45,400 nucleotides of DNA from assembly GCA_017442105.1 (NCBI GenBank), contig JAFSAX010000134.1, forward strand, positions 1 to 45,400, in the 5' to 3' direction. Shown one piece after another: positions 4,637 to 40,810 of the stretch. Source of the DNA: Selenomonadales bacterium. GTDB lineage: Bacteria; Bacillota; Negativicutes; RGIG982. The notes below the pieces were generated by a model, which was not told the origin of the DNA, ran no database searches, and saw only the letters and a list, made by a program, of their open reading frames with translations. The stretch's first letter is position 1. Each line of letters starts with the position of its first letter. A program made the position numbers and the translations under genes.

Positions 4637-7600
4637 CTACTTTATTTTTTTGTCAAATACGATCGCTTTCAGCACTTCGCCAATATCGTTGTCGAAATCG
4701 TTGTCCGCATATCGGATAAACGTCCAGATGCCATCCGTTATCGTATCGCTCCAGCCTGTGAACGAATTAGATGCCCTTGTCACTTCTCTGCCGACATCGA
4801 TCCAATCCTTTTTCTTGGACATGATCGCCTGCGATGCACGTTGTGCGCGATCGACCACATCGTATGCCGAGGTCATTTTTGCACCGTATACGCGCTCGCC
4901 CATGAACACACCAACCGTTACCTTGAAAAACTCTCTTGCGATTGGGATCATGCCGAACACCTGCTCGCCGAACGACTGCGCCATATGTGCAGGATCGAAT
5001 ACTTTTTTGATACGCTCCGACATATCTTCCTCATCGTCTCCCCACAGCGCACGAAGCACTTCTTCCATCGCCTTCGTAAGAATGAGCCAATACAGCACGC
5101 TTCGCGCAAATTTCATCCATTCTCCCGCGTTGACTGCCCTGCCGTAACGGAAGGCAAGCGCATTGAATACGGTGTTCATATACGAATAGAACATTGTGAG
5201 CTGTTTTGCGACTTCATGACTTCGCTGAACAGGCGCAAGGTCCTTGACATCACCGCTGCCGAATACGCGTCTGACCGCCGCATCGCCTGCCGCTACTGCT
5301 CTCCGCTCGATATTCTCCGCCGAGAGACCTTTTCCCACGCCTTCCCGATACACTCTTTCGTACTCGCTTTTCCAAAGCGGCGCAGCAAACATAAGATCGG
5401 TATATGCCATCAACGTAAAAGCATGCTCCTCCGCCCATTCGATTTTTTCTTTCGCTCCTCTGATCACCTTGCCTGCGAGATTCGGGAGCTTGCTTTCTCC
5501 TTCTCGTATCTCTCTCAGCTTCTCGCGCACATCTCGATCCATCGTCTCTGCTCGATGAGCAAGAAATTCCGATTTTTCCAGACAGAACTGATATTCCTTA
5601 ACAGGATCGGACGCAAAATTCCTCAGAGCGGCAAACGTTCTGCCTGCGCCGATATACTCGGTCACAGGCGCAATGTTCACCAGATTCAGCGCTGCAACAG
5701 TGACGCGCCAGCCCATGACAGCCATCGTCGCGTTTCTGCGAAGGAACGCCGCAACCTTGGTGATCTTATCCTTCTTCTCGTCCATCACCCAATTATCTTT
5801 CACCCACTTGTCCAGACTTCTGTGTGTCGATGTGCCGTACGCTTCTTCGATAGCCACTCTGACTTCCTGCGCATTGATGAGCTTGTAGACATCTCGGATC
5901 GCCTCACGATAACAGATGTTGTGGATCACATCGTCAAGTGCCTTTGGGAGAGGATCAAGCACCGTATAGATCGGTCGCTCGATCGTCTGCCGACTGCGCT
6001 GTTTTGTGAATCCTCGGCGCGTACCAAGCACGGCATTGCCGCTCATCTGCATTTTGGCGACATCGTCTTTCTCTAGGTCCTGCTGCCGTCCGCTTTTGGT
6101 CGGATCATACATGATTGGATAATAGCCGCCCGCAAGATGGTAGACAGTGCCGTCCTTGCCGACGATATCAAACGGCACTGCCTGCTGTTTCTCAATTCCT
6201 ACGCCTGTCATGCGCTCCTCAATAGCGACCGTATCGCCCCAGAACGATTCAAGCAGAGTCCACACGCCTGTGACCGTCTGCCAATCCTCCGCAGTAAGAT
6301 TGCCCAACACTTCTTCAATGTCTTTCTCTGTGAGATTGACAAACGCATCTTTATTTTGCTCGTCAGGTTTCTTGAATCCGTCCAAGACACGCTTACGGTT
6401 AAGCTCCGTCCCCCAGTTAAGAGCCAGCACGATAACCTGTTCCTTCGTCAGCACCGAGGTACCGAGCTTATACCGTTCTTCTTTGCGATGCTCTCTGTAT
6501 TTACCGAACAGCTCATGCACAGCCTTTGCCGCCTGCGCCTGCATGCGCATCTCCTTATTCGCCGCCCGATCGATCGGATCATACAGGAACATCATCGATA
6601 CGCCTTCCTTGCCGCCGTCGTTCCAACGGAATATCGTCTCAGGCTTGATAAGTTCTCCAACCGCCGCATCGCGTGCTGCAGTTATCTTTTCAAGTGTAGT
6701 CGGCAGTGTCATGCCCGTCGGATCATCGTTTGCTTTTGCCTTTACGTTCTTACGGACACCATCTGCGATACGTTGTACGGCATCTTCAAACGATACCGCC
6801 TTGCCGTCCTCATCGATGACCGTAAAGAGCCTGTTCGCATTTTGTCCGATGGTGTATACGCTCGTCAGAATGTCGAACAATCCGTCAAACTCATCCTTCG
6901 TCAATGCACCATAGCCGAGAGCCTTAACAGGGTTCTTCCTGCCTTCAATATTGACCTGCGTTTTGTAGACATCATTGCCGCCTGCCGCATCCTTGATAAA
7001 CTGCGGGATATCGACCTCGCCGTCCTCGTCAAGGAAGTGTGCTTCATATTCTTTGGCATACCGCTTGAACATCGCATCGACGCTCTCGCTCCCCTGCCAC
7101 TCCTGTGGCATGATGGCATCTCGGCGATTGACACCGAACACGTAGAGAAGATGGTTATAAAAATAGCGTTCATCAGCCGCCAATTTGACATTGCCTTTGG
7201 CGATACTGTTTGAACGCTTTTTCAATTTGTTCACTTTTTTATCTACATCTGCTTTCAGTTTTGCAGATTCGTCGGCGAAGTAGCTGAACATGACCTGCTC
7301 CCGCTTCGCTTGTTTCGCTTCTTGCCACTTACCCTTTGCCATCAGACGTGCGACCTCGACACCTTTCATGCGTTCCTTATGCCGCCATGAGTAAGTAGCT
7401 GTCGCCTGTCTGATCGGCATATACATCAGATTCATGAACGCAGCACGTTTGTACATATCCATCTGCCCTTCGACCGCATCACGTACCAGTCGGATACCTT
7501 CTTTTGACGATGTAATAAAGTCCCTAAGCTGTTTGACAGTATCAAGGATCTTCGCCTTGTCCTGCTCTGCCTTTTCCTTCGCCTTGCCTACCGCTTTCTC

Positions 7601-10600
7601 GACAGCTTCTTCCTTATCCTGTTTCGCTTCGACTTTCGCCGCCTGCTTCTGCATTTGATTGATGAGCTTCATCTCGGCTTCACGCCATCGGTAGGTGTAC
7701 TTGAGATCGGCAATTCGTTGTTTGAGCGACTTGACCTCTTTGCCTTCATCCTTCGGCTGTTCTTCTTCGCCGCGAAGAGATTTTTCGATCTCATCCAGAG
7801 CCTTGTCTACGCTCTTGTCAAGACGTCTTTCCTCTTTCTCTTTACGTTCCAGCGCTTCATATTCAAGCGTGAGGATCATCGCCTTATATTTTGAGGATGA
7901 TAGAGCCTTTTCCGCTTCTGCGTTTACAGTCGCTTCAACATCAGTATACGAATCCATATCTTCTACGGCTTGTGCCAGCTCTTTTTCAACCGCTTTTTCA
8001 AGACCGCCGCCGTGCATTTCAAGCTCTGCTTTATAGCTTTCTTCGGTATATCCAAGCGTAGGCAGGATATCCATACTTCCGGACAATCGTACACACTCTT
8101 CTGCACGGAAAATATCCTGTTCTTTTAACCGCTCCTCAATATCCTCGCGCATCGCCTTGATGATCTCCTGTCTGCCCGCTTCCATTTCGTCAGACACATC
8201 TTGCATCGCGATCTTTAACACCTTTTCTTTTGCTTCTTCCTTCGCTTCGCGTACCCATCGTTCGTACATCGCCTGCGTCGTATCGTCGAGTATCTGCATA
8301 CCCTTTTTCTTCGTAATAGATTCGATGCCCTGTACCTTTGCTTCGGCTTCTATCTCCTGCTCGCTTGCGAGCATACGTGCCATAACCGCCCGTACTTCCG
8401 CAGACGGTTTCCCGCCGAGCTGTACGAAATCGGCATAGATGTCGCACAGCCACTTTTTAAACGTGCGGAATACTGCTCTAAGACCGCGTACAGGTGCTTC
8501 GCCTGTGCGTAAGTACGCTTCGAATCCTCGAGCAAACTTCTCATGCTGTTCCCTTGTGAATCCTTGACTATCCTTATACCCAAGCCATTCTTTGACCGTC
8601 TGCCAATCTCTGACGAGCTGTGCAGGCGCACCATCCATCTCGGCAAGCATCTTAAGATCGGCAAGTGCTACATGCCCAAGCTCATGTACGAAGGTCGATT
8701 TGTCTGCCGATTCAAACAAGCTCACAACACGAGACATACCGCTGATGCGCGTCTGACCGCGGACGGATTGATTGTACCGCTCGATAACAGAGATAGCCTT
8801 ATCGTCGAATACAACAAAGCATCTTCCGTCAAGATAACCTTCGTAGGTGATTCCTTTGACACCATATTCGTTGAGCTTACGCGATGCTTCTTCAAGAGAA
8901 CCATATTCTTTTACCAACTTGGAGTAGATGGCATGTCCCGTATCGTTGGCGTTGAAGATGTTATACTTATACTCCTTCTCGTAAATCGAATCTGCAATTT
9001 CGTCCAACTCTTTGCCTAGATCACTACCTTTTCGCACATGCCTATGTGTGGAAAAATCAACCCAATCACCAAAAAGAGAACCTTTTACATATTTGTATGT
9101 CTTACCTTTATAGTCGACAAACTTGCCTGTTGTTGTGCGCTTGCCAATCTCTTTTAAGGCATTTATAACTTTTGGAGGTTGCTCTTTAAGTGGTTTCTGT
9201 TCGTCAAGCAGAACATCATTTTCGGGGATATCGACCTCATACAATTCCCCCGGGGTCTTTGCTTCGTTTTCTGTTTTTTCAATACCCTTCGAAGCAAAGT
9301 TTTCCTCCAGATAATCAGCCGCCTCATCAAGTCGTACATCGTTCCATTTGGACGCAGCTTGTTTTAGGCTGAGTATGGTCGCGGCGACGTTGCCATTTTC
9401 GTTGCTCAGGTAATTCAATGCTCTTTCCAAAACATCAGACGCTCTGTTTCCTTCGGCATCTCGCCATTCGCCCCGCACTGCTTTGTACCCAAGATAAATA
9501 CTTTCTTTTACTTCCCCTGCTAATCTGCGGCGGTATTCTTCTGATACCTTCTTGTCCTGTGCGAAGTACAGCCCCCATCCATGCGCCTGTGCTCCTTCGC
9601 CTGTGCCGATCGCGCCCAAGTCGAAGGTATCAAAGGTATGCGGCGTGCCGTGATACGCGGTCTGATAATATGTAGGCATTCCCTTTTTTCGCTTGCGTAA
9701 ATCGTTTTCATTTGGTATATTAGTAGTAGATAAACTACTGATTTTGTTGAGGACGTAGGGCGGTTTGAGCCTTGCCTCCCTTAACCAATCAGTAGTTTTT
9801 TTCTTGTTTATATACCGAATTTTATTGGTATTAAGGAAATTGTCTATAAACCATTTGTAATCTGTTTGTTTAACTGCATTGGCTGTGCCGTAAGCACTGT
9901 CTTTCCCATAGGATGATAAAATAAAGTTTGCGTTATTGCCTGTGCTGTCTCTTTTTTCTAATAAAAAAGTCACAATACTGACATCGTTTTTGTCGCCCAA
10001 ATCCAACGCTACTAAAATATTCCCGTTAGATTCAGCAACAAATAGAGGATCAGTAAGAGCCCTCGGGATTTTTTTTAGCTCTTCCTTTCCTATACTGTCT
10101 TTGTGTTTCACAAGAATATGCTCAAAAGTTTTATTCTTTATTTTTATCGGTAAGTGTGCAACGCCTGCTATTTCCAAAGCTAACGGAGTATGCATCACAT
10201 AGCTTTCTCCACGCTTCGGAAGTTTTGTCCAAGTATCTACCGTTTTTGCAAAATCAGCTTCATCTTTCTTCAATTTTGCTTCAGCAATATCTTGTCCATA
10301 CGCGCCTTCTTCCACTTCCGTCGCATCTGCCACGATAGAGGTACGTTCACGCATATAATCCTCGGCTGTATACGGTTTGCCTGTTATCTTGCTGATATTG
10401 TCTGCCATACGGTCTGCATATCTGGCGAACAGGATGGCATTCATTCTGCCTGCCTTCTGTACATCTGCATTGCCGCGTTCAAACTGCTTGCGTGCCGCTT
10501 GATATACCTTGTAGCCGCTCGGTGTAAGACCGCGCACTACTGCCATCTCGCTCGCTGTGAGGTTTTCTACCTTGCCTTTGATATCATTGAGAATATCAAG

Positions 10601-12988
10601 ATTCGCAAAGTCCTGATCGAGTGCATCGAAGTCCTCCTGCATCTCGTCTGTTGCTTCAAAGGTATATTCGGGCATCTGGTAGCGTTCGCCGCCGCCCTTG
10701 TATATCTCGCGTGCCATCTCCCACAGCTCGGCTTTGTTCGGCTTACGTTTATGCTGTTTATAAAAGTCGCTATACCACTCGTCATTATCGCTCATGCGTT
10801 TTGCAGGATGGCCTATCTCGTCAGAGTAGTACATATGTATGCCTCTGCTCATGCCTTCTTCCAGTTTCTTCACGATATTGCCGAGGCGCGCATTGATAGC
10901 TGTTTCTGTATCGTGCTTCATCTGTTTCCATGCCTGCATCGGATTGGACGGATTCGACAGGATGATAGCCGCGCCCATGTCCTGCTCTATGCCTGCTTCG
11001 GGGAAATTTGCCGTGATAATACCGTCTATCAGCTCTGCCTGCTTTTCTTCCTGCTCGATGCTGATGCTTTTTGCCATCTCCTCAGCAACAGCCATATAGT
11101 ATTTCTTACGTGCCGCGCTGTGTCCCTTTTCATCAAAAGAGATGTACCGATCGAACTTATCATTGTTCATTACCGTCTGCGCGTAGATTTCCGTAGGCAC
11201 GATGAGATCAGCCTTATTTTCGATGATGGCGTTGACTTCTTCTTGCTCAAGTCCCATTTCCTCAACAAGCTGATTGAACACTACCGCGCCTTCTTCGTCC
11301 TGCAGGGCAAGTTCCGTGTCGACGCGTACTTCCTTAAACTCCGTGTTCTCAACTGCACCTTTGACAGCCGCTTGATAGATCTCTGGATTTTTCTTGAACA
11401 ACTTCGATTCTGCCATATTCGCCTGCAGATTCTTTATCATGGCAAGACCGTTCGCACGCTTCATCTCTGCAAAGAAGATATCATTTTGCTCTTTCTGCAG
11501 ACGGGCAAAGTCGCTCACGCTTTTGAAATTCGACACCGTACCACCGATAACGCCAAGACCGATGATACCGGGAAGAGCTTCTGCCGACGCTTCCAGCGCA
11601 CCTTTGGCAAACTCTGTACCTGTATACTTACGGTATGCCGCCTGTGGTGCATACGTTACGATGGCATTATGTACCGCCTTATCGCTTGCATCCTGCACCG
11701 CTTCTTCTGCCGCTTCGGTCGCTCCTGCTTTTGCCGCCTGCAATACGCGCTCTCTGATGAATTGGGACATACCTGCTTTCAACATTGCTTGATCGCCCGA
11801 TGCCTTTGCCACGATTTCCATGATATCACGCTTGTAATTTGCACCGAGGAGATTCATGATCTGACCGTAATTCCAGAACTCCACGCCTGTTTCCATACCT
11901 GCCGCGATCGCCGCGAACGCACGTGCTTCATTCGGCGTCAAAAGGGTTTTGCCGTCTTTTGACTTCATCTCGCTGTACTCGGCATAATGTCTGCCTGCGC
12001 TGTTCATGAACATATCCTCTGCCATACCGTATCTGAATCCGATACCTGCCGTTGTGATAGCCGCACCCATAGCAGGAGCAGCAAGTGTACCACCCGACAT
12101 GACTGATACACCTACCCCTGTCGCAAGAGCCGTAGCCGCAAGGTTTGATCCTCTCTGTATCCCCTTGTTCATGTGGTAGAGATTAGCACCCGTACCGCCC
12201 GCGATTGCTACCCAAGGATCGTCAAGGAGATTCGGCATAGACTTCTGCTCGGGGATAGACTTCTTGATAGATGCGATCTCTTTTTTCATCTCATCTGTCA
12301 GCTCACCGCCTGCAAAACCAAACACGCCAAGCTCACCGATGCGGTAATTCGCCTTGTCCATCGCATACCCAAGGCTAAACGCCTCTGTTGCCGACTTTGC
12401 TTTCGTCAAGTCCTCGATATTGTGCATGGCGATAGCAACATCGGTATCGCTCATATTCGGATTCTCAACGACTTCTTTCAGCCCGGGGAACTTCGCATAC
12501 ACAGCATCCATATCGTCCCAATCGTTGATACCCTCGGGCGCAAGTGCCATACGCTTCTTCGTATACTCCTGCACACTTCTGCCCTTCGCCATGTTCTCGT
12601 CACTGTACAACAGTGCATTGACAGGGATACCTGTTTCAATACTGATGACCTGTGCCTCACGCTTCTTTTCTTCATCCGTCGCCAAATATTTTCTATACGC
12701 ATTACTGCCTTTCAGATAAGCGGCTGTATCCGATGCAGTTTCAACGATCGTAGACACCGCGCCTGTAAATGGTGCCACAGCACTTACAACATTCTCCGAT
12801 ACATCCGCACTTACCACACCTGTCATCGCACCGCCCGCCAAGTCAAGCATAGACAGATTGTCTGTGCTGTACTCATACTTCGGTTTCACAGGAGCAGGAG
12901 AGGATTGCTGTGCCTTGCGAATGCGTTCTGCACGCTGTTCGTCAACGAGCTTCAATCGCCGTTGCCACCGCTCAATATCGTTTGCCAT
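4637..12988 (-). CDS. Giant (2,783 aa) multi-domain internal virion / ejection protein of the polyvalent type
   Basis: Uninterrupted ORF in the T7 gp16 position after the other core proteins. Gly/Ala-rich hydrophobic N-terminus, an HILVKH nuclease-like module, a YHGTPH...GWGLYFA module, HELGH, an E/K coiled coil, and a roughly 900-aa C-terminal region. Confidence 0.85.
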   Translation of the reverse strand: MANDIERWQRRLKLVDEQRAERIRKAQQSSPAPVKPKYEYSTDNLSMLDLAGGAMTGVVSADVSENVVSAVAPFTGAVSTIVETASDTAAYLKGSNAYRKYLATDEEKKREAQVISIETGIPVNALLYSDENMAKGRSVQEYTKKRMALAPEGINDWDDMDAVYAKFPGLKEVVENPNMSDTDVAIAMHNIEDLTKAKSATEAFSLGYAMDKANYRIGELGVFGFAGGELTDEMKKEIASIKKSIPEQKSMPNLLDDPWVAIAGGTGANLYHMNKGIQRGSNLAATALATGVGVSVMSGGTLAAPAMGAAITTAGIGFRYGMAEDMFMNSAGRHYAEYSEMKSKDGKTLLTPNEARAFAAIAAGMETGVEFWNYGQIMNLLGANYKRDIMEIVAKASGDQAMLKAGMSQFIRERVLQAAKAGATEAAEEAVQDASDKAVHNAIVTYAPQAAYRKYTGTEFAKGALEASAEALPGIIGLGVIGGTVSNFKSVSDFARLQKEQNDIFFAEMKRANGLAMIKNLQANMAESKLFKKNPEIYQAAVKGAVENTEFKEVRVDTELALQDEEGAVVFNQLVEEMGLEQEEVNAIIENKADLIVPTEIYAQTVMNNDKFDRYISFDEKGHSAARKKYYMAVAEEMAKSISIEQEEKQAELIDGIITANFPEAGIEQDMGAAIILSNPSNPMQAWKQMKHDTETAINARLGNIVKKLEEGMSRGIHMYYSDEIGHPAKRMSDNDEWYSDFYKQHKRKPNKAELWEMAREIYKGGGERYQMPEYTFEATDEMQEDFDALDQDFANLDILNDIKGKVENLTASEMAVVRGLTPSGYKVYQAARKQFERGNADVQKAGRMNAILFARYADRMADNISKITGKPYTAEDYMRERTSIVADATEVEEGAYGQDIAEAKLKKDEADFAKTVDTWTKLPKRGESYVMHTPLALEIAGVAHLPIKIKNKTFEHILVKHKDSIGKEELKKIPRALTDPLFVAESNGNILVALDLGDKNDVSIVTFLLEKRDSTGNNANFILSSYGKDSAYGTANAVKQTDYKWFIDNFLNTNKIRYINKKKTTDWLREARLKPPYVLNKISSLSTTNIPNENDLRKRKKGMPTYYQTAYHGTPHTFDTFDLGAIGTGEGAQAHGWGLYFAQDKKVSEEYRRRLAGEVKESIYLGYKAVRGEWRDAEGNRASDVLERALNYLSNENGNVAATILSLKQAASKWNDVRLDEAADYLEENFASKGIEKTENEAKTPGELYEVDIPENDVLLDEQKPLKEQPPKVINALKEIGKRTTTGKFVDYKGKTYKYVKGSLFGDWVDFSTHRHVRKGSDLGKELDEIADSIYEKEYKYNIFNANDTGHAIYSKLVKEYGSLEEASRKLNEYGVKGITYEGYLDGRCFVVFDDKAISVIERYNQSVRGQTRISGMSRVVSLFESADKSTFVHELGHVALADLKMLAEMDGAPAQLVRDWQTVKEWLGYKDSQGFTREQHEKFARGFEAYLRTGEAPVRGLRAVFRTFKKWLCDIYADFVQLGGKPSAEVRAVMARMLASEQEIEAEAKVQGIESITKKKGMQILDDTTQAMYERWVREAKEEAKEKVLKIAMQDVSDEMEAGRQEIIKAMREDIEERLKEQDIFRAEECVRLSGSMDILPTLGYTEESYKAELEMHGGGLEKAVEKELAQAVEDMDSYTDVEATVNAEAEKALSSSKYKAMILTLEYEALERKEKEERRLDKSVDKALDEIEKSLRGEEEQPKDEGKEVKSLKQRIADLKYTYRWREAEMKLINQMQKQAAKVEAKQDKEEAVEKAVGKAKEKAEQDKAKILDTVKQLRDFITSSKEGIRLVRDAVEGQMDMYKRAAFMNLMYMPIRQATATYSWRHKERMKGVEVARLMAKGKWQEAKQAKREQVMFSYFADESAKLKADVDKKVNKLKKRSNSIAKGNVKLAADERYFYNHLLYVFGVNRRDAIMPQEWQGSESVDAMFKRYAKEYEAHFLDEDGEVDIPQFIKDAAGGNDVYKTQVNIEGRKNPVKALGYGALTKDEFDGLFDILTSVYTIGQNANRLFTVIDEDGKAVSFEDAVQRIADGVRKNVKAKANDDPTGMTLPTTLEKITAARDAAVGELIKPETIFRWNDGGKEGVSMMFLYDPIDRAANKEMRMQAQAAKAVHELFGKYREHRKEERYKLGTSVLTKEQVIVLALNWGTELNRKRVLDGFKKPDEQNKDAFVNLTEKDIEEVLGNLTAEDWQTVTGVWTLLESFWGDTVAIEERMTGVGIEKQQAVPFDIVGKDGTVYHLAGGYYPIMYDPTKSGRQQDLEKDDVAKMQMSGNAVLGTRRGFTKQRSRQTIERPIYTVLDPLPKALDDVIHNICYREAIRDVYKLINAQEVRVAIEEAYGTSTHRSLDKWVKDNWVMDEKKDKITKVAAFLRRNATMAVMGWRVTVAALNLVNIAPVTEYIGAGRTFAALRNFASDPVKEYQFCLEKSEFLAHRAETMDRDVREKLREIREGESKLPNLAGKVIRGAKEKIEWAEEHAFTLMAYTDLMFAAPLWKSEYERVYREGVGKGLSAENIERRAVAAGDAAVRRVFGSGDVKDLAPVQRSHEVAKQLTMFYSYMNTVFNALAFRYGRAVNAGEWMKFARSVLYWLILTKAMEEVLRALWGDDEEDMSERIKKVFDPAHMAQSFGEQVFGMIPIAREFFKVTVGVFMGERVYGAKMTSAYDVVDRAQRASQAIMSKKKDWIDVGREVTRASNSFTGWSDTITDGIWTFIRYADNDFDNDIGEVLKAIVFDKKIK

Positions 12989-23590: not shown

Positions 23591-24940
23591 TCATCCGAAC
23601 GGATCATACTCTGTATTGCATCTTGTCATCGCTGAATTGTATAAATTTGTGTTTGGTAACACAATTTGATGGGCAAACGTCAATGCTACCGCGTCTGCGA
23701 TATCAGGGCTCATACCAAAATCACGCTTGATATCTTCCTTCTTTTTCAGCTTCCGTCTGTCCGCATTGTCGAACCCATACTCTACTACTGTCAGTTCCGC
23801 TTTCAGCTCGGGCATATCGGGCAGACTTCCCGTCCGTCTGATCCAATCAGCCATCTTGTGCCACATCTCAGTCCGCAGATTGATGTACTTGTTGGGATCC
23901 TCTGCCTTACTGCCAAACGCTACCTCGATGATATTCGTATATCCAAGCTGTCTAAGCCTGTCTATCACACCACTGCCGCCGCCTGCGTCGATGAACACGG
24001 CTACAGGATCATATCTGCGTATCTCTTCCACGATGCGCGCCACCAGTTCCATATTGTCTATGCCCTTGTAGATTTTCGGCTCATACAAGACCTCGCCTTG
24101 TCTACACGCTATGACGCTTCTGTCATCACCGAATCTAGCCACGTCTACACCGAGGATGCGCGGCATCCCGCGCACCTGCGCTTCGGTGTACTTGCGTGCG
24201 ATTGCTGTTTCCACCATGTCTATCGTGATAAGGATATTGAACGCCGAAACAGTGAAGTCGCACAGCATCTCCTGTCGGTACTCAATGTCCGTCATATTGT
24301 CTTTCATGTCAGCTAACTCCTCATCGTCAATGATGCCCGTTTCTGTGGCACGAAACAAAAAAGAGAACCAGTCATCCTTAGACAGGCTCTCCTTGTATTT
24401 TTCATAAAATTGGTTTTGTCCCTTCGGTGTTCCGATGAACCACGCGAACCCTTTTCTGTCGGCAAGCGCAGGACGGATGATCTCGCCCCACAGTTCCGGT
24501 TTGATCTGCGCATATTCGTCCAAGATCACCCCGTCCCAGTACGTGCCGCGCAGTGCGTCTGGTTTGTCCGCACCGACAATGTATATCCTTGCCCCGACCG
24601 CACCCTTATGCCTCGTCGGGATCTCGATGTACAATTCGCTCTCATTCGTTTTCAGACCGGGTATTTTATTGGCATAGAATTTCAGATAGTTCCATGCTAT
24701 CATCTTTGCCTGATTGCGATACGGTGCGATATATGCGTACTGCGGACTTATCTTCACGTCAAGCAATGCTTTTTTCAGCATCGCATTGACGCTGCCGACC
24801 GTTTTCCCCAGCCTTCGATGTGCTACCAGTACACCGAAACGGTGTTTATCAAACGCAGGATGAAGAACGTCACGCCATATCTTTCTAGGACGATACGGTA
24901 TCGTTATCTTCATTGCTGTCCCACTCGATCGTGATAGCAC
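23591..24940 (-). CDS. terL: Terminase large subunit
   Basis: 449 aa. Has a Walker-A-like AHRRLGKTVG, a GVILDEY Walker B, and a C-terminal nuclease-like region. The start is ambiguous (GTG at 24940 or ATG at 24913). Confidence 0.85.
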   Translation of the reverse strand: MLSRSSGTAMKITIPYRPRKIWRDVLHPAFDKHRFGVLVAHRRLGKTVGSVNAMLKKALLDVKISPQYAYIAPYRNQAKMIAWNYLKFYANKIPGLKTNESELYIEIPTRHKGAVGARIYIVGADKPDALRGTYWDGVILDEYAQIKPELWGEIIRPALADRKGFAWFIGTPKGQNQFYEKYKESLSKDDWFSFLFRATETGIIDDEELADMKDNMTDIEYRQEMLCDFTVSAFNILITIDMVETAIARKYTEAQVRGMPRILGVDVARFGDDRSVIACRQGEVLYEPKIYKGIDNMELVARIVEEIRRYDPVAVFIDAGGGSGVIDRLRQLGYTNIIEVAFGSKAEDPNKYINLRTEMWHKMADWIRRTGSLPDMPELKAELTVVEYGFDNADRRKLKKKEDIKRDFGMSPDIADAVALTFAHQIVLPNTNLYNSAMTRCNTEYDPFG

Positions 24941-25283
24941 CTTCGTGCTCGTTCACACGCTTCTCGACGAACATACCGAGGCTCTTGCCGATCAGCTCCG
25001 ATGCCTTCAGACGGTTTTTCATGTTTTCCTCTTCATCCTTCATCACACCTGCCCAAAATGCCGTAAGCTCTTCATTCAGTACGCCTGCCGCGTCCGCATT
25101 GCGCTCCTGCAGCTCACGTATGCGCGCCTGCACCGCAGGTATCTGCATGATACGATGTGCCTGCCTGTTCGCATTCGCCGGCGCATATCCTGCACGACGT
25201 GCCGCCTCCGCACGCGATACACCTACCTGCGTGACAAACTGACAGAACAACTCATGCTGTTGATTTTCTAGTATTGGCACCAC
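24885..25283 (-). CDS. terS: Terminase small subunit
   Basis: 132 aa. ELFCQFV...SRAEAARRAGYAPANANRQAHRIMQIPAVQARIREL is typical of the Terminase_2-type TerS. GTG start with a GGAGG RBS. Confidence 0.8.
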   Translation of the reverse strand: MVPILENQQHELFCQFVTQVGVSRAEAARRAGYAPANANRQAHRIMQIPAVQARIRELQERNADAAGVLNEELTAFWAGVMKDEEENMKNRLKASELIGKSLGMFVEKRVNEHEGAITIEWDSNEDNDTVSS

Positions 25284-25298
25284 CGTACACCTCCTTCA

Positions 25299-25325
25299 TA
25301 AGAAAAGCCGCCCATAAGGACGGCT
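25299..25325 (-). terminator. Weak terminator-like hairpin just upstream of the terS RBS
   Basis: Minus RNA forms AGCCG(U)CC-UUAU-GG(G)CGGCU followed by UUUCUU. It sits between the early-side small ORF and the late operon. Confidence 0.4.
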
Positions 25326-26040: not shown

Positions 26041-26069
26041 TTGACATTCCGCCCATTGGGCGGTATAAT
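26041..26069 (+). promoter_or_regulatory. Consensus sigma-70 promoter of the rightward three-gene cassette
   Basis: TTGACA, a 17-nt spacer, then TATAAT. An AAAGGAGAG RBS and the ATG at 26107 follow. Confidence 0.8.
26049..26063. promoter_or_regulatory. Palindromic operator inside the promoter spacer
   Basis: CCGCCCA-T-TGGGCGG is a perfect 7-bp inverted repeat lying between the -35 and -10 elements. Confidence 0.6.
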
Positions 26070-26106
26070 ATAATCAAAGGTAAGGAAAACCAAAGGAGAG
26101 ATAACA

Positions 26107-26379
26107 ATGTTGGAAAGAAAATATTATTCGGTCACAAACCCACTCGGACAAGAATATTTGTATGTAACAGAAGAAGGTCGCAGGATACCTTTGTGGGCAG
26201 ATCAGCACAAGACGGAAATTTCGTATGAAGAAGCGCACCAAAAATTTCATAACGAGTGCATTTATACCGTATTCGACACCAAAAATTTAAATTGTGCAGG
26301 ATCGATCAGATGTACGGAGCATCCCGATATTTTTGATGATGTTATTGCCGGCAACTGGTTTCCAACGCCAAAATTATAG
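26107..26379 (+). CDS. Small hypothetical protein (90 aa), first gene of the rightward cassette
   Basis: Strong RBS. Opposite strand to all neighbours. No motif recognised. Confidence 0.7.
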   Translation: MLERKYYSVTNPLGQEYLYVTEEGRRIPLWADQHKTEISYEEAHQKFHNECIYTVFDTKNLNCAGSIRCTEHPDIFDDVIAGNWFPTPKL

Positions 26380-26384
26380 GAGTA

Positions 26385-26705
26385 ATGACTATGGATGAAA
26401 AAATGAAAGAAATGCTTACCGCCATTCACGAAGGAGAAATAGAAGGAATGACTGTAAGTTACGATTCCGAAGATCTGATTGCCGAAGTCAAAGAAGATAT
26501 TGCCGAGCTCGGCGAAGACACATATGTCTTTGTTTGGGCACGATACGTCGAAGAATATGGCACCGCCTTTGCTGTCGATTATGACTTCCTCGATGCCACG
26601 ATCCGCAAAGATGATATTGATGCAGATGAATCTGTAGGCGTCACTACACTCGGCGAGCTTCTTACACAGCTCGAAAAACAAAATAGCATCATGGGAGATG
26701 ATTAA
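26385..26705 (+). CDS. Hyper-acidic small protein (106 aa), DNA-mimic / anti-defence candidate
   Basis: By my count about 29 Asp/Glu against about 7 Lys/Arg. RBS is TAGGAG. Adjacent to the next gene with no gap: its stop codon ends at 26705 and the next ATG is at 26706. Confidence 0.7.
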   Translation: MTMDEKMKEMLTAIHEGEIEGMTVSYDSEDLIAEVKEDIAELGEDTYVFVWARYVEEYGTAFAVDYDFLDATIRKDDIDADESVGVTTLGELLTQLEKQNSIMGDD

Positions 26706-27056
26706 ATGACAATCAAAGAAGCACGCATCGCCGCAGGTCTTACCCAAGCAGAGATGAGCCGCATTTTCGAGATACCTACCCGCACAATCGAGCACTGGGA
26801 GGCAGGCACACGCAAACCGCCCGCATATGTGGAAAAACTAGTCTTAGCTAAGCTGAAACGTCATTCCCAAAACAGATTTTATGCTGCCAACAATGAAACG
26901 CTTATTTCGGAGCTTTGCAGCGTTCAGAATACGCTTTGGGAGCTTCGCGAAGATATGAAAAGCCTCGGCATCAACGATAATGCAATATCTATCACGAGTA
27001 ATGCAATCGACATGATAGACAATATCGTACTTGCTATAGAAGAAGAGCAGGAGTGA
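26706..27056 (+). CDS. XRE-type HTH regulator (Aca-like or antitoxin-like) with a C-terminal extension
   Basis: MTIKEARIAAGLTQAEMSRIFEIPTRTIEHWEAGTRKPPAYV is a classic HTH_XRE pattern. It is the last gene of the cassette. Confidence 0.8.
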   Translation: MTIKEARIAAGLTQAEMSRIFEIPTRTIEHWEAGTRKPPAYVEKLVLAKLKRHSQNRFYAANNETLISELCSVQNTLWELREDMKSLGINDNAISITSNAIDMIDNIVLAIEEEQE

Positions 27057-27077
27057 TTCCTGCTCTTTTCTTTTTTT
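27043..27077 (+). terminator. Intrinsic terminator of the rightward cassette
   Basis: 10-bp stem aagagcagga/tcctgctctt, a 5-nt loop, then ttctttttttat. Confidence 0.8.
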
Positions 27078-27447
27078 ATCTTTTTTGGAAATAACCTCGA
27101 TCGTTGTTCTTCTCCCACGCCAGCCGTCTCGCCATTGTCCGCTCTTTCGCTGATGTGCCGAGTAAATGCATCAATGTTTCGACCGACTGTTGAATGTCGG
27201 CGCACTCAATCAGAAGATTCAACCGCGATTCATGGTCGCCAAAGGCGCAGTATCTTTCATACGCTTCGTCCACTTCTGCTGCCTCTTCGCACATCTTCCC
27301 AATCTGGCCTTTGAAGGTGTTATCGCTGAAGCGGTAAGACGGCATCAACCATTCGTGATCTCGTGCGATACATCGGAGCGGGCGTTTCTTCCTGCTCATC
27401 TGCGACGTCGCACGCTCGACATCGTTCATCGTCATCAATCTCATCAC
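27076..27447 (-). CDS. MazG-like nucleotide pyrophosphohydrolase (start uncertain)
   Basis: The EEAAE-X22-ECAD arrangement matches the EExxE...ExxD MazG signature. It is the last gene of the early operon. Confidence 0.6.
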   Translation of the reverse strand: MMRLMTMNDVERATSQMSRKKRPLRCIARDHEWLMPSYRFSDNTFKGQIGKMCEEAAEVDEAYERYCAFGDHESRLNLLIECADIQQSVETLMHLLGTSAKERTMARRLAWEKNNDRGYFQKR

Positions 27448-27841
27448 CTCGTAATTTTCTAAGTATCTTTCTGTAGCGATGGTGGAGCGCGTTCCACGAC
27501 AGACACATCGTCGCTGCCACCGCCTCCCACGTCATTCCGCGGAAGTAGTAGAGCCGTATCAGCATCTGCTCGTCTGCTTCGAGCGCATCCACCTCCGCTT
27601 CTATCTTCGCCTTTTGTTCCAGAAGGATTGACATGTTGTCGAAGTATCGCTTCCTGAGAGCGTCCGCGCGGGCAATGACTTCGCCGATCTTGTCGGTCGT
27701 CTGGTGCGCACCCGGCATACCCGACAGATTCTGTACGCTAGGCACGACCATCATCATATCCAGTTCGCGTATCTCCTCTGCTAACTGCAGTACTTCTTCT
27801 TTCAGATGTCGGTATTGTCTAAGTTCATCTTTCGTTACCAT
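27320..27841 (-). CDS. Sigma-70 region-4-like phage transcription activator (DUF1492/ArpU/RinA style)
   Basis: N-terminal coil. EQMLIRLYYFRGMTWEAVAATMCLSWNALHHRYRKILRKL is an HTH. GGAGG RBS. Confidence 0.6.
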   Translation of the reverse strand: MVTKDELRQYRHLKEEVLQLAEEIRELDMMMVVPSVQNLSGMPGAHQTTDKIGEVIARADALRKRYFDNMSILLEQKAKIEAEVDALEADEQMLIRLYYFRGMTWEAVAATMCLSWNALHHRYRKILRKLRGDEIDDDERCRACDVADEQEETPAPMYRTRSRMVDAVLPLQR

Positions 27842-28993: not shown

Positions 28994-29088
28994 CACTCGT
29001 CCTCCTTCCACACCGTATCTCGGTACAATCCCACCGCACCGACCAGAGCAATCCCGATCAGCGCGACAGCAATGATAATACACATCAT
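28993..29088 (-). CDS. 31-aa hydrophobic micro-protein
   Basis: Its ATG overlaps the methylase TGA, and its stop overlaps the next ATG. Sequence is MMCIIIAVALIGIALVGAVGLYRDTVWKEDE. Confidence 0.45.
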   Translation of the reverse strand: MMCIIIAVALIGIALVGAVGLYRDTVWKEDE

Positions 29089-29906
29089 GTCGTATTGCCC
29101 TCCTCGAACAAATTTATCTGTTTCTCTTCTTCCGTTTTCAGCATCTTCTCCATCGCTTCTCGGTAAAATCGCTTATCGACCTCGAAGCCGTATGCCTTTC
29201 TGCCCAGCTCATGCGCCGCTCGAAGCGTTGATCCGCTTCCTGCACAGGGATCGATCACAACGTCCCCGGGATCTGTAAATATCTCGATCAGCTTTTTCAA
29301 TACTCCGACAGGCTTCTGCGTCGGATGAATCTTTGGATATTCCTTCGCGCTATCTCTCGCCCACTCGATCCAGTTAAATATCATCTTTCCGCTCCCGCGT
29401 ATGATCTTGCCGTTCTCATCGTACTGCCTGCCGTTGTTAAATTTCGGCAACTTATCACGATACAACACCACTGCGAATTCTGTCGCTCCGACTATCTTCA
29501 TGTTTGCTTTCAGCACTTGTGCCGAGTAGTTTTTTATGAAAAAGAGAGGATAGTTCTTATCAAATCCGTACCGCTTGCCGTATTCAATGACCGTCTGTAT
29601 CTGCTCGAACGCGCAGAACACGATCATGGCAGGTGCTTGTCCTTTCTCTTTCGGTTCTTTTTTCAACAGGCGATTACAGAAGTGCATATATTCTGCGATC
29701 TTGAAGTTACCGTCTGTGTTAAAAAATGTCGCCTTTGCCAGCTTGCTTTCACCATTCTTATTGTCACCATCGTTGTACCACATCGGATTGCTTGCGTAAG
29801 CATCTACGCCGATGTTGTACGGTATATCCGCGATAACAAGCTGTGCTTTCGGAATATTGTACCGTTTGAAATTCTGGAAATTATCGTTGTACAGCTCCAT
29901 TTTCAT
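29085..29906 (-). CDS. Orphan DNA methyltransferase (N6-A/N4-C, beta class)
   Basis: VIADIPYN is a motif IV DPPY variant near the N-terminus. VIDPCAGSGSTLRAAHELGRKAYGFE is motif I near the C-terminus. No nuclease partner is present. Confidence 0.85.
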   Translation of the reverse strand: MKMELYNDNFQNFKRYNIPKAQLVIADIPYNIGVDAYASNPMWYNDGDNKNGESKLAKATFFNTDGNFKIAEYMHFCNRLLKKEPKEKGQAPAMIVFCAFEQIQTVIEYGKRYGFDKNYPLFFIKNYSAQVLKANMKIVGATEFAVVLYRDKLPKFNNGRQYDENGKIIRGSGKMIFNWIEWARDSAKEYPKIHPTQKPVGVLKKLIEIFTDPGDVVIDPCAGSGSTLRAAHELGRKAYGFEVDKRFYREAMEKMLKTEEEKQINLFEEGNTT

Positions 29907-37159: not shown

Positions 37160-37176
37160 AAACACGTTACGTGTTA
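37160..37176. promoter_or_regulatory. Operator-like palindrome O3
   Basis: AAACACG-TTA-CGTGTTA. The stop codon of the Cro-like gene sits in the centre. Confidence 0.5.
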
Positions 37177-37370
37177 TCGTTTGGTAAAAAAATAAGTTTT
37201 TCTTGCGGAACACCGTACAAGACTACCATTTTCTTTACCGTGTCAAGAGTAGGAGAAGTTTCTCCCATTTCGTAATTCCACAAGGTTTTTCTTGTGATCC
37301 CTAGTAGTTTCGCGGCTTCTTCCATGTTAAACCCTTTGTTTACTCTCGCCGCCCTAGCTGTAATTTTCAA
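37167..37370 (-). CDS. Cro-like XRE-family HTH protein (67 aa)
   Basis: TTG start at 37370 with a GGAGG RBS 6 nt upstream. NMEEAAKLLGITRKTLWNYEMGETSP is the HTH. The longer track ORF would cover the promoter. Confidence 0.7.
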   Translation of the reverse strand: MKITARAARVNKGFNMEEAAKLLGITRKTLWNYEMGETSPTLDTVKKMVVLYGVPQEKLIFLPNDNT

Positions 37371-37389
37371 AGGATACCTCCTTTCCGAG

Positions 37390-37406
37390 AAACACGAAAC
37401 GTGTTT
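37390..37406. promoter_or_regulatory. Operator palindrome O1
   Basis: AAACACG-AAA-CGTGTTT, lying between the leftward -10 and the cro RBS. Confidence 0.6.
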
Positions 37407-37419
37407 TTCATCTATCCAT

Positions 37420-37448
37420 AGAATACACCATAAAACCACCATTGTCAA
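37420..37448 (-). promoter_or_regulatory. Leftward early promoter (PR-like)
   Basis: Minus strand: TTGACA (37443-37448), a 17-nt spacer, then TATTCT (37420-37425). Confidence 0.65.
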
Positions 37449-37461
37449 CACTTTTTGTGTT
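37447..37461. promoter_or_regulatory. Operator palindrome O2, overlapping the leftward -35
   Basis: AACAC-TTTTT-GTGTT. Confidence 0.5.
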
Positions 37462-37478
37462 TTATTTTTTTGAGTTTG

Positions 37479-37507
37479 TTTACTTCTTTTCTCAAATGGT
37501 GTAAAAT
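37479..37507 (+). promoter_or_regulatory. Rightward repressor promoter (PRM-like)
   Basis: TTTACT, a 17-nt spacer, then TAAAAT. A GAGGTG RBS and the ATG at 37531 follow. Confidence 0.45.
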
Positions 37508-37530
37508 GCAAGTAAAGCGAGGTGTGATTG

Positions 37531-38106
37531 ATGCGCGTAGAAATAGACAAGAAAGTTGTTGGGAAAAACCTCACAAAACTAGTTAAAAACAGCGGAAAAA
37601 GCAGAAAAGAAATCTGTGCTGCAACTGGCATCGGCTACTCCACTTTTACCGAATGGATAAACGGTAGGAAGTACCCTCGTCCAGAAGGCATAGAGATATT
37701 AGCTAAATACTTCGGTGTGTCTAAAGCAGACCTTATCGAAGAACAGACCGCCGCTCCTGTTCTCCTCTCCCCTGCCGAGATTGGCAACACCATACGCGCT
37801 CAGCGAGAAGAAAAGGGACTCACATACGAACAGCTTGCCGAACAAACGGGCACTACAGTAGCTGTCATCAAGAAATGGGAGAAAGGCAAGATTGCCGAAC
37901 CTCGCATAGACATGGCATCAAACCTTGCACGTGCACTCGACCTGCCGACCTCTGCCCTCTTCGGTGTGCAAGAGAACGAAACGAACATACGCAGACAGAG
38001 ATTCCGAACCATGCTATACGAAGAACTCCCTGACCTGTGCTTGACCGATGACGAGATAAGACAAGTCATCAACTATATCAAGTTTGTTATATCGCAGAGA
38101 AAATAG
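37531..38106 (+). CDS. CI-like repressor with two XRE HTH domains and no S24 peptidase domain
   Basis: Two HTH units (GKSRKEICAATGIGYSTFTEW and KGLTYEQLAEQTGTTVAVIKKWEKG). Divergent from the Cro-like gene. Confidence 0.8.
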   Translation: MRVEIDKKVVGKNLTKLVKNSGKSRKEICAATGIGYSTFTEWINGRKYPRPEGIEILAKYFGVSKADLIEEQTAAPVLLSPAEIGNTIRAQREEKGLTYEQLAEQTGTTVAVIKKWEKGKIAEPRIDMASNLARALDLPTSALFGVQENETNIRRQRFRTMLYEELPDLCLTDDEIRQVINYIKFVISQRK

Positions 38107-39599: not shown

Positions 39600-39630
39600 A
39601 ACCGACTACCCTATCGTAGTCGGTTTTCTT
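39600..39630 (+). terminator. Intrinsic terminator between the morons and int
   Basis: 10-bp stem aaccgactac/gtagtcggtt, a 6-nt loop, then ttttctt. Confidence 0.75.
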
Positions 39631-39646
39631 GAAAGGAGAGAACCAT

Positions 39647-40810
39647 ATGCCGAGTAAGATACGCAAACGCGGTAACAGCTATCTGCTGACCGTCACGCAT
39701 GAGAAGAAAGAATATACTAAGACTGTCCGTGTATCCACTAAGAAAGAAGCGGAAAAGGCATGGGCACTCTTCGCTTCTGAGGTCATCAAAGACAGGCTGT
39801 CTGCACGTGCCGAGGGAGATATGACGCTCGATGACTTTTATGCGTACTGGACGAAACATTACGCGGAGATGAATCAAGCTATATCATCGCAGGGATTGAA
39901 CGAGCGCATATTCCAACGTATCAGCGGCGCACTCGGTCACATGAAGATATCGAAGATAAGACCGCGACACATTCTGTCTTTTGCCAAACAGCTTACTAAG
40001 CCTGATGCTTCAAATTACGGCAAGCCACTCTCTACCGCCTACATCAAGAAGCATATGTCCAATCTCCGCACAATGTTCTCCTGTGCTGTTCAGTGGGGAT
40101 TCATCGACAATAACCCGATGGATAATATCAGATCGCCCAAGGGAGTGACGAAGAAAAAGGTACTCCCAACCGAGGCAGAGCTTGCCGCTTTTTTCTCGGC
40201 AGCAGACAATGCTACCACAAAACATAAGCTGTGGATCGCGCTTGCCTTTACACTCGGATTACGCAGAGAAGAGATATTCGGCTTGCAATGGGGGGACATC
40301 GACTTTGACCGCCGATCGCTTACTGTAAACCGAGTAGCGGTCTATGTGTCGGGTCGCGGTATATTTGTTAAGGATGCCAAGACGGATAATTCTTACCGCA
40401 CGATACCGATAAACAATTTTGTCTTAAACCTGCTGTACGCATGGCGTGGCGAAGTGATCGCCGCAGAACAGAACGTGATAAGCATCAATGCACCGATAAG
40501 ACCTGTTGATTTCCTCTTTCCGAAGGCAGACGGCTCTGTGGGGCATCCTCACGCGATCAACACATTTATGAGTAGATTTTGCAAGAAGAACAATATCCCT
40601 ACTATCTCTCCTCACGATCTCAGACATATGTACGGAAGCTACCTCATTGCAGGCGGCGTGAATATCGCTACGATCAGTTCACTCCTTGGACACTCGGACA
40701 AGTCCTTTACGCTCAAGACATACATCCATGAATTGAAGTCCCTTGAATCTCATACGGCAGACATCATGGACAGCACGATGAGCCAGATGAAAAATATCAC
40801 AGGCAAATAA
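39647..40810 (+). CDS. int: Tyrosine integrase
   Basis: The ATG at 39647 follows AAAGGAGAG. The N-terminal SAM-like domain begins KIRKRGNSYLLTV. The catalytic region contains LRHMYGS, LLGHSD and TYIH. Confidence 0.9.
   Translation: MPSKIRKRGNSYLLTVTHEKKEYTKTVRVSTKKEAEKAWALFASEVIKDRLSARAEGDMTLDDFYAYWTKHYAEMNQAISSQGLNERIFQRISGALGHMKISKIRPRHILSFAKQLTKPDASNYGKPLSTAYIKKHMSNLRTMFSCAVQWGFIDNNPMDNIRSPKGVTKKKVLPTEAELAAFFSAADNATTKHKLWIALAFTLGLRREEIFGLQWGDIDFDRRSLTVNRVAVYVSGRGIFVKDAKTDNSYRTIPINNFVLNLLYAWRGEVIAAEQNVISINAPIRPVDFLFPKADGSVGHPHAINTFMSRFCKKNNIPTISPHDLRHMYGSYLIAGGVNIATISSLLGHSDKSFTLKTYIHELKSLESHTADIMDSTMSQMKNITGK

Follow-up and report, generated by a model that had tools for sequence, protein, structure and literature searches.

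AcrIIA17 is a type II-A anti-CRISPR (Acr) protein that binds the bridge helix of apo-Cas9 and prevents loading of the single guide RNA (sgRNA) (PMC8754659, PMC13520725). Its structure has been deposited as PDB entry 23AA, replacement of its residue D17 by Trp leads to loss of binding to the Cas9 bridge helix, and its second interface residue, E57, has been described as non-conserved (PMC13520725). The anti-CRISPR-associated (Aca) protein Aca10 (WP_074980464.1, PDB 7XI5) represses the acrIC7-acrIC6-aca10 operon of Pseudomonas citronellolis. Its operator, defined by electrophoretic mobility shift assays, is the inverted repeat AATACGCTCA-T-TGAGCGTATT, which lies in the promoter TTGCAA-N16-TATTCT and overlaps both hexamers; DNA is bound by residues Q22, R34, and R44, of which R44 is the most critical (PMC9410881). 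Aca repeats are usually located inside the core promoter or overlap it (PMC12658196, PMC9410906), and fusions of Acr and Aca modules are an established pattern, as in AcrIIA1, AcrIIA13, AcrIIA15, and AcrIIA32 (PMC9410881, PMC12282945). Here, we describe a cassette at positions 26041-27079 of a 45,400-nt stretch of DNA from a Selenomonadales bacterium (contig JAFSAX010000134.1 of assembly GCA_017442105.1; in the following, the window) that resembles both of these systems.

The cassette consists of a promoter with a built-in operator, three coupled open reading frames (ORF1-ORF3) of 90, 104, and 116 aa, and a strong terminator (Table 1). It probably represents an autoregulated acr-aca-type counter-defence operon that encodes an AcrIIA17-like protein (ORF2), an orphan protein (ORF1), and an Aca10-like repressor (ORF3) occluding RNA polymerase. 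A layout of this type had been proposed in an earlier reading of the DNA letters (the original prediction). It is now supported by the sequence signals, by the homology of ORF2 to AcrIIA17, by the likeness of ORF3 and its operator to Aca10 and the Aca10 operator, and by a conserved layout with variable cargo and a co-variation of helix-turn-helix (HTH) protein and operator in 50 related loci. Neither the two protein families nor the operon logic is new, and all findings stay inside the established acr-aca framework.

The promoter is a perfect TTGACA-17-TATAAT sequence, as had been noted before, and it is the only 12/12 match between 20 and 38 kb, the chance expectation being about 0.005-0.016 perfect matches per window. 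The spacer harbors the perfect 7-1-7 palindrome CCGCCCA-T-TGGGCGG (26049-26063), which had also been recognized and which extends to the 10-1-10 inverted repeat ATTCCGCCCA-T-TGGGCGGTAT, starting at the last base of the -35 hexamer and reaching three bases into the -10 hexamer. This repeat and the Aca10 operator have the 10-1-10 architecture, the 1-bp centre, and the position from -35 into -10 in common, and their cores, CGCCCA-T-TGGGCG in the window and CGCTCA-T-TGAGCG for Aca10, differ by one base per half-site. At the other end of the cassette, the strong terminator postulated earlier is present as a hairpin of 13 pairs (27041-27069; ΔG -18.2 kcal/mol, z = -3.9), and none of 200 shuffled sequences folded as well.

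ORF3 belongs to the XRE family, in agreement with the original prediction, with a match to HTH_3 over residues 3-39 (E=1.8e-6). Its ATG directly abuts the stop codon of ORF2, and the cassette has a single terminator. When the profile of the ORF3 HTH family was compared with PDB sequences, three chains were found at about 1e-5, one of which is Aca10 (7XI5, E=4.4e-5). The Aca10 DNA-binding residues Q22, R34, and R44 align with Q14, R26, and R36 of ORF3, and all three are invariant in the HTH-family alignment. Aca10 Q37 is not conserved and aligns with Glu29. G49, which belongs to the dimer interface in helix alpha4 of Aca10, aligns with Tyr41, and the C-terminal part of about 60 residues could mediate dimerization of ORF3 instead. 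The two proteins further share an XRE-type HTH with a WEAGxR motif, and both genes are the last in an operon with two small cargo genes. They differ in that Aca10 has only 65 aa and lacks the C-terminal extension, whereas relatives of ORF3 with 63-71 aa match Aca10 in size; in addition, the host belongs to another phylum, and the cargo of the Aca10 operon consists of type I-C Acrs instead of an AcrIIA17-like protein. As judged from these comparisons, ORF3 is a predicted autorepressor.

The distribution of operators bears on the question of whether ORF3 might instead regulate the phage more generally, as a Cro-type or late-switch protein that controls several promoters, which would make the cassette part of the core lytic programme. 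The position of the cassette between the early and the late block, next to a gene for a sigma-like regulator, would fit such a role, and the HTH profile also matches phage repressors. However, a scan with CCRCYCAWTGRGYGG retrieved a single match without mismatch, the cassette's own, and no second operator in the window; the next-best match has 2 mismatches and is located inside a coding region. Furthermore, sister phages with the same backbone do without ORF3, so it is dispensable, and a separate lysogeny module is encoded at 37-41 kb. A general regulatory function has thus scarcely any probability. The original prediction had also pointed out an additional copy of the 8-mer CCGCCCAT near terS (25308-25315). 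This copy does exist and lies in an unrelated hairpin, but it was dismissed as not significant: the 8-mer occurs four times in the window against 1.5 expected copies, and 8 of 100 shuffled sequences matched this number, so that its occurrence is attributed to chance. The element holding it is a terminator-like hairpin, AGCCGTCCTTATGGGCGGCT, followed by a T-run on the minus strand directly upstream of terS (25306-25325), which may be a late-operon terminator or an antitermination site.

The second gene of the cassette encodes a markedly acidic protein. The charge balance given for it before (29 Asp and Glu versus 7 Lys and Arg) is exact, but its start is most likely at position 26391, because homologues and independent gene calls start there, and its length is then 104 instead of 106 aa. 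ORF2 has no match in Pfam, PHROGs, PADLOC, or NCBIfam, and its 38 close relatives, with identities of 69-95%, are all unnamed. A genome scan with a narrow alignment of this family gave only one true hit. In a search of PDB sequences with ORF2 alone, the top match was 23aa_A, annotated as 'Anti-CRISPR protein' (E=0.34), which remained on top with a profile of the close family (E=0.04, two collinear segments). An exhaustive profile search over 1.84 billion representative proteins (E<=1e-3) revealed a superfamily of 71 clusters at 50% identity, comprising mostly acidic proteins of 80-90 aa that start at the equivalent of Met1 of AcrIIA17. A domain alignment of 65 sequences was then built, on purpose, without AcrIIA17 and its close relatives, and the resulting profile retrieved AcrIIA17 from the PDB at E=6e-8, the next chain following at 0.36. 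The two proteins are also connected by a Ligilactobacillus prophage protein (L096), which is 41% identical to AcrIIA17 over all 100 residues in an ungapped alignment (E=8e-25) and shares 36% identity with ORF2 (E=4e-14); in the latter alignment, ORF2 lacks a single stretch of 18 residues where AcrIIA17 has its alpha2 region. In a direct comparison, ORF2 and AcrIIA17 show 38% identity over 45 aa (E=2e-6). By these sequence comparisons, ORF2 is a remote but significant homologue of AcrIIA17 and a member of its superfamily, and it is regarded as a candidate Cas9 inhibitor.

AcrIIA17 (WP_074626943.1) and ORF2 are similar in size (100 versus 104 aa), and both are encoded on mobile elements. They have in common a core ISxDSExLIxExxxDIxxxGED, followed by two beta strands and a C-terminal LxELLxxLxxQNxI helix. 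An equivalent of AcrIIA17 D17 is kept as D36 in ORF2; no member of the close family deviates at this position, and conservation over the 65 superfamily members is at least 90%. AcrIIA17 has a fold of three beta strands enclosed by three helices. In a model computed with AlphaFold2 (AF2), the core of ORF2 has a pLDDT (predicted local distance difference test) score of 80-96 and the element order alpha-beta-beta-beta-alpha (H26-40, E45-53, E58-66, E80-86, and H87-102), preceded by a low-confidence N-terminal helix of 19 residues. The nearest fold neighbour is Paratox both for the ORF2 model and, as reported, for AcrIIA17 (PMC13520725). In contrast to ORF2, AcrIIA17 has a surface charge described as balanced, and its closest relative found here resides on Enterococcus plasmids and not on a Selenomonadales phage. 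The acidic character of ORF2 had suggested a DNA mimic. This notion is not supported, as no DNA mimicry is reported for AcrIIA17, and it is not the best analogy because AcrIIA17 acts on the bridge helix of apo-Cas9, where it blocks sgRNA loading.

The AcrIIA17-like domain is also found naturally joined to HTH domains. Four proteins (P0086, P0100, P0112, and P0117) carry an N-terminal HTH_3 domain, and two others (P0107 and P0124) have the reverse order, with the AcrIIA17-like domain followed by HTH_3. The HTH of P0124 is of the ORF3 type, with 42% identity to that of ORF3 over 55 residues (E=1e-13). A further case is Orf140b of Streptococcus phage Sfi21, to which ORF2 has a structural and a profile match: it consists of an N-terminal HTH like the N-terminal domain of AcrIIA15 (E=0.005) and an AcrIIA17-like C-terminal half. 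These proteins resemble the known bifunctional Acr-Aca proteins, whereas in the window the inhibitor-like module and the regulator are encoded by separate, translationally adjacent genes. AcrIIA5 has the same length of 140 aa as Orf140b. An identity of the two was rejected, as the N-terminus of Orf140b matches the AcrIIA15 HTH and the protein has no match to AcrIIA5. The best viral fold match to ORF2 is Orf103a of phage TP-J34 (BFVD O48387, E=3.9e-4), and both Orf140b and Orf103a may be unrecognized anti-CRISPRs of S. thermophilus phages. A natural fusion of cargo and regulator was found in another locus (L082, 4437-5180), which encodes a cargo protein of 247 aa: an unknown domain makes up about 190 aa at its N-terminus, and an ORF3-type HTH (IPKRSIENWDGGKRNPPEYV) comes next; this locus also has a second, stand-alone HTH gene and a second operator-bearing promoter.

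ORF1, whose predicted length of 90 aa stands, has no match in Pfam, PHROGs, PADLOC, or NCBIfam; of the two cargo proteins, only ORF2 could be connected to a known Acr. Among 5.8 billion proteins, its sole match is an identical sequence from a Selenomonadales metagenome-assembled genome, and copies of this phage are the only place where ORF1 occurs. Its AF2 model, computed from the single sequence, is weak (pLDDT 63.5) and has no fold neighbour in the PDB (best E=1.5). A kinship to the first cargo gene of locus L015, suggested by the likeness of the motifs KYYSVT and RYYAVT, was rejected as not significant (E=0.1). ORF1 is regarded as orphan cargo and, by association through its position as first cargo gene, as a candidate anti-defence protein.

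Homologues of ORF3 are always encoded by the last gene of a rightward cassette between terS and leftward genes for sigma-like, RusA, and SSB proteins, while each locus has other genes upstream of them. When viral contigs were scanned with the HTH alignment, 73 more loci were revealed. In 50 of 83 HTH loci, a near-consensus promoter with a 7-1-7 palindrome (<=1 mismatch) in the spacer, in the register seen in the window and abutting the -10 hexamer, is found 60-1930 nt upstream of the HTH gene on the same strand. The cargo encoded in these loci comprises at least 24 unrelated families, mostly of 60-250 aa and many with an isoelectric point (pI) of 4.1-5.2, none of which has a known function. 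Between the window and locus L011, identity is 91% over promoter and leader as far as the first ATG, but the cargo beyond is unrelated; these sequence relations therefore indicate that cargo is exchanged between conserved ends.

The operator arms change in a compensatory manner among these loci (CACGCA/TGCGTG, CACTCA/TGAGTG, CACACA/TGTGTG, CACGGA/TCCGTG, and CGCCCA/TGGGCG), and the variable base is tracked by residue 30 of the HTH protein (ORF3 numbering), which follows the RTIE motif in the recognition helix. Asn at this position coincides with T or C in the operator in all 12 cases, to which L066 with an atypical repeat can be added; Asp or Glu coincides with G in 15 of 16 cases; Ala or Ser with A in both cases; and His with C in the CGCCCA context of the window and L011. 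The HTH of L015 is nearly identical to that of ORF3 save for the exchanges H30N and T25V, and CCACTCA takes the place of CCGCCCA in the L015 operator. These residue-base pairs are phylogenetically non-independent, but the association still recurs over clearly different HTH backgrounds. Together with the compensatory changes of the arms, it lends indirect support to a binding of the repeat and a repression of the promoter by the HTH protein. In L015 (2648-2720) as well as in L016 and L017, the cassette contains two operator copies. In L015, the first (CCACTCA-A-TGAGTGG) lies in the promoter spacer and the second (CCACCCA-A-TGAGTGG) in the transcribed leader, immediately 5' of where the first cargo gene has its ribosome-binding site. 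For Aca2, control at the RNA level has been reported, and the second copy in L015 could add a further tier of regulation, perhaps of this kind.

In sister phages, close homologues of ORF2 occupy the same slot as solo genes, which are not accompanied by ORF1 and have their own, different promoter and terminator. No HTH gene was found within about 4 kb of these solo genes; therefore, ORF2 does not depend on ORF3. Their promoter-like sequence (cTGACA-17-TATGCT with TG extension; L001, L005, and L008, about 3940-3975) shares positions with the inverted repeat CATACC-N6-GGTATG, which is unrelated. Two sister-phage loci (L005/L006, 2165-3215) carry, in the variable region a few genes away from the ORF2 slot, a pair of genes for proteins of 150 and 206 aa with a SocA_Panacea domain, so that this hotspot seems to have taken up a toxin-antitoxin or defence insertion as well.

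These solo genes also speak against a type II toxin-antitoxin module, in which ORF1 and/or ORF2 would be the toxin and ORF3 an MqsA- or HigA-like antitoxin repressing via the palindrome, because a toxin could not be maintained in this way. This alternative had been named in the original prediction, and it can be argued for with sub-threshold matches of the ORF3 HTH to the antitoxin families MqsA, HigA2, and HipB and with the fact that some toxin-antitoxin systems are encoded toxin-first and autorepressed via palindromes (PMC9410906). The antitoxin-like matches are accounted for by the resemblance of Aca6, Aca9, and Aca10 themselves to HigA2 antitoxins (PMC9410906). Moreover, neither ORF1 nor ORF2 matches a toxin family in Pfam, NCBIfam, or PADLOC, the same HTH is found behind at least 24 unrelated cargo sets, and in L073, L074, and L078 only about 20-70 nt separate the promoter from the HTH ORF, so that cargo would not fit in between. 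Together with the homology of ORF2 to AcrIIA17, this makes a toxin-antitoxin module very unlikely.

Several observations weigh against an acr-aca-type counter-defence operon. Regarding the regulator, ORF3 and Aca10 share only about 35% identity over 46 residues (16 identities), and two uncharacterized XRE proteins score as well as Aca10 against the ORF3 HTH profile. Homologues of Aca10 have been defined by at least 50% identity and 80% coverage (PMC9410906), and the identity of ORF3 lies below this limit. Because of the low identity and the C-terminal extension, ORF3 is called Aca10-like here and is not assigned to the Aca10 family. Regarding the cargo, the solo homologues of ORF2 have no HTH gene in their vicinity, and none of the 73 other HTH-anchored viral loci contains an AcrIIA17-like gene. 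ORF2 lacks the alpha2 segment of about 18 residues, has an extra low-confidence N-terminal helix, and is only about 36-38% identical to the AcrIIA17-type core, because of which its target could have changed. In addition, Ile76 is found in ORF2 at the position of E57 of AcrIIA17, which is not conserved, and a literature search found no paper that links Selenomonadales with Cas9.

Some of these points also favor an autoregulated accessory ('moron') unit whose cargo is not anti-CRISPR. ORF2 would then use an AcrIIA17/Paratox-like fold against another host protein or defence, and ORF3 would still be a promoter-occluding repressor. Paratox (Prx, PDB 6CKA), which inhibits the transcription factor ComR, is like ORF2 a small acidic prophage accessory protein, and among PDB folds it comes closest to the ORF2 model (E=0.1, probability 0.85, TM-score 0.35/0.48, 27% identity over 66 columns). 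The match is, however, not significant, and no sequence-level kinship was detected. Such a function would also fit the loss of the alpha2 segment and of the E57 equivalent, the breadth of the superfamily, with AcrIIA17 as its sole characterized member, the lack of a literature link between Selenomonadales and Cas9, and the location of Sfi21 Orf140b in an accessory region between lysin gene and attP. On the other hand, this sole characterized member is an anti-CRISPR to which ORF2 has a significant sequence link, the Asp important for Cas9 binding is kept in ORF2, and the domain has been found fused to regulatory HTHs of the Acr type, such as the N-terminal domain of AcrIIA15. An accessory unit with other cargo is therefore considered an unlikely alternative, although one of some weight.

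If the cassette is an acr-aca-type operon, its function can be pictured as follows. After entry of the phage DNA, host RNA polymerase would fire the consensus sigma-70 promoter and produce one mRNA for ORF1, ORF2, and ORF3. ORF2 would most likely bind a host protein before this is armed; by analogy with AcrIIA17, it would act on the bridge helix of apo-Cas9 and block loading of the guide RNA. ORF1 would act as orphan second cargo; any anti-CRISPR effect of the two cargo proteins is inferred, as are transcription from the promoter and repression by ORF3. Accumulating ORF3 would dimerize and bind the 10-1-10 repeat that spans the region from -35 into -10. The bound repressor would exclude RNA polymerase and keep the operon off in later infection and in the prophage, and the strong terminator would insulate the cassette from the convergent early operon.

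The pairing of an AcrIIA17-like with an Aca10-like protein in a phage of Negativicutes is new. It is also new that AcrIIA17 is not a solitary protein with a fold of its own but belongs to a large superfamily (at least 71 clusters at 50% identity) in which fusions to HTHs are frequent, and that operator and recognition residues are conserved between Aca10 and the phage HTH family, which links a Pseudomonas regulator to phages of another phylum. The combination of an Aca10-like HTH with a promoter palindrome at a fixed position provides a handle for the discovery of anti-defence genes in little-studied Firmicute phages from gut, oral cavity, and rumen, with at least 24 candidate families, and the way HTH and operator co-vary points to a small set of repressor-operator pairs, orthogonal to each other, that could serve as genetic parts. 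We tentatively propose that, in many uncultured phages including those of Selenomonadales, a hypervariable slot for counter-defence genes exists beside terS and is marked by the Aca10-like HTH with its operator, while regarding the opposite as somewhat more probable. If this proposal is true, ORF1 and most of the at least 24 unknown cargo families would be new anti-defence proteins, and the ORF2 subfamily, with its deleted alpha2 and added N-terminal helix, would inhibit a Cas9 of Negativicutes or a target other than Cas9 by a variant mechanism. The pairing of residue 30 with operator base 4 would then be a simple recognition code (Asn-T/C, Asp/Glu-G, His-C, and Ala/Ser-A).

Table 1. Features of the cassette, its surroundings in the window, and Sfi21 Orf140b
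Feature	Position	Strand	Remarks
-35 hexamer	26041-26046	+	TTGACA; belongs to the sole 12/12 promoter match between 20 and 38 kb
Operator (predicted)	26046-26066	+	ATTCCGCCCA-T-TGGGCGGTAT; 10-1-10 inverted repeat, 9/10 positions paired
-10 hexamer	26064-26069	+	TATAAT; 17-nt spacer from -35
5' leader	26070-26106	+	contains ORF1 ribosome-binding site (AAGGAGAG, ~26093-26100)
ORF1	26107-26379	+	90 aa, pI 5.2
ORF2	26391-26705 or 26385-26705	+	104 aa or 106 aa, respectively; pI 4.05
ORF3	26706-27056	+	116 aa; XRE-family HTH (residues 1-52) and ~60-residue C-terminal extension
Intrinsic terminator	27041-27079	+	hairpin over ORF3 stop codon, then T-run
terL	23591-24940	minus	
terS	24885-25283	minus	
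Leftward terS, terL, and structural genes	from 25283 downward	minus	
Leftward early operon	ends at 27076	minus	Erf, DnaD-like loader, DNA methyltransferase, SSB, RusA, sigma-like regulator, MazG-like protein
Sigma-like regulator	27320-27841	minus	adjoins cassette
Repressor-like HTH	37167-37631		
Integrase	39629-40810		
Sfi21 Orf140b	23983-24405 of L022 (Streptococcus phage Sfi21, AF115103)		accessory region between lysin gene and attP

The window represents a temperate phage with a lysogeny module of integrase and repressor-like HTH genes apart from the cassette. As had been predicted, the strand map identifies the cassette as the sole plus-strand unit between the terS/terL block and the leftward early operon. 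Its G+C content is 0.43 compared to 0.48 for the window. Searches of 50,697 phage records found nothing, neither by blastn in distant mode with the cassette nor by tblastn with ORF2. The early operon encodes a DNA methyltransferase (29085-29906, minus strand; phrog_67, E=4e-53), which would be a second, independent counter-defence function directed against restriction. When read from its first start codon, the MazG-like ORF (27076-27447, minus strand) overlaps the sigma-like gene (27320-27841) by 128 nt, and gene calling on contig L098, which is identical, left it out. The ORF probably starts further inside, or there may be no gene at all. In the structural region, a single ORF of 2783 aa (4637-12988, minus strand) is unusually large even for a protein of the tape-measure or tail-fibre type. 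In a related phage (L011/L012, 498-3017), the large terminase has 839 aa and contains an intein (Pfam Intein_splicing).

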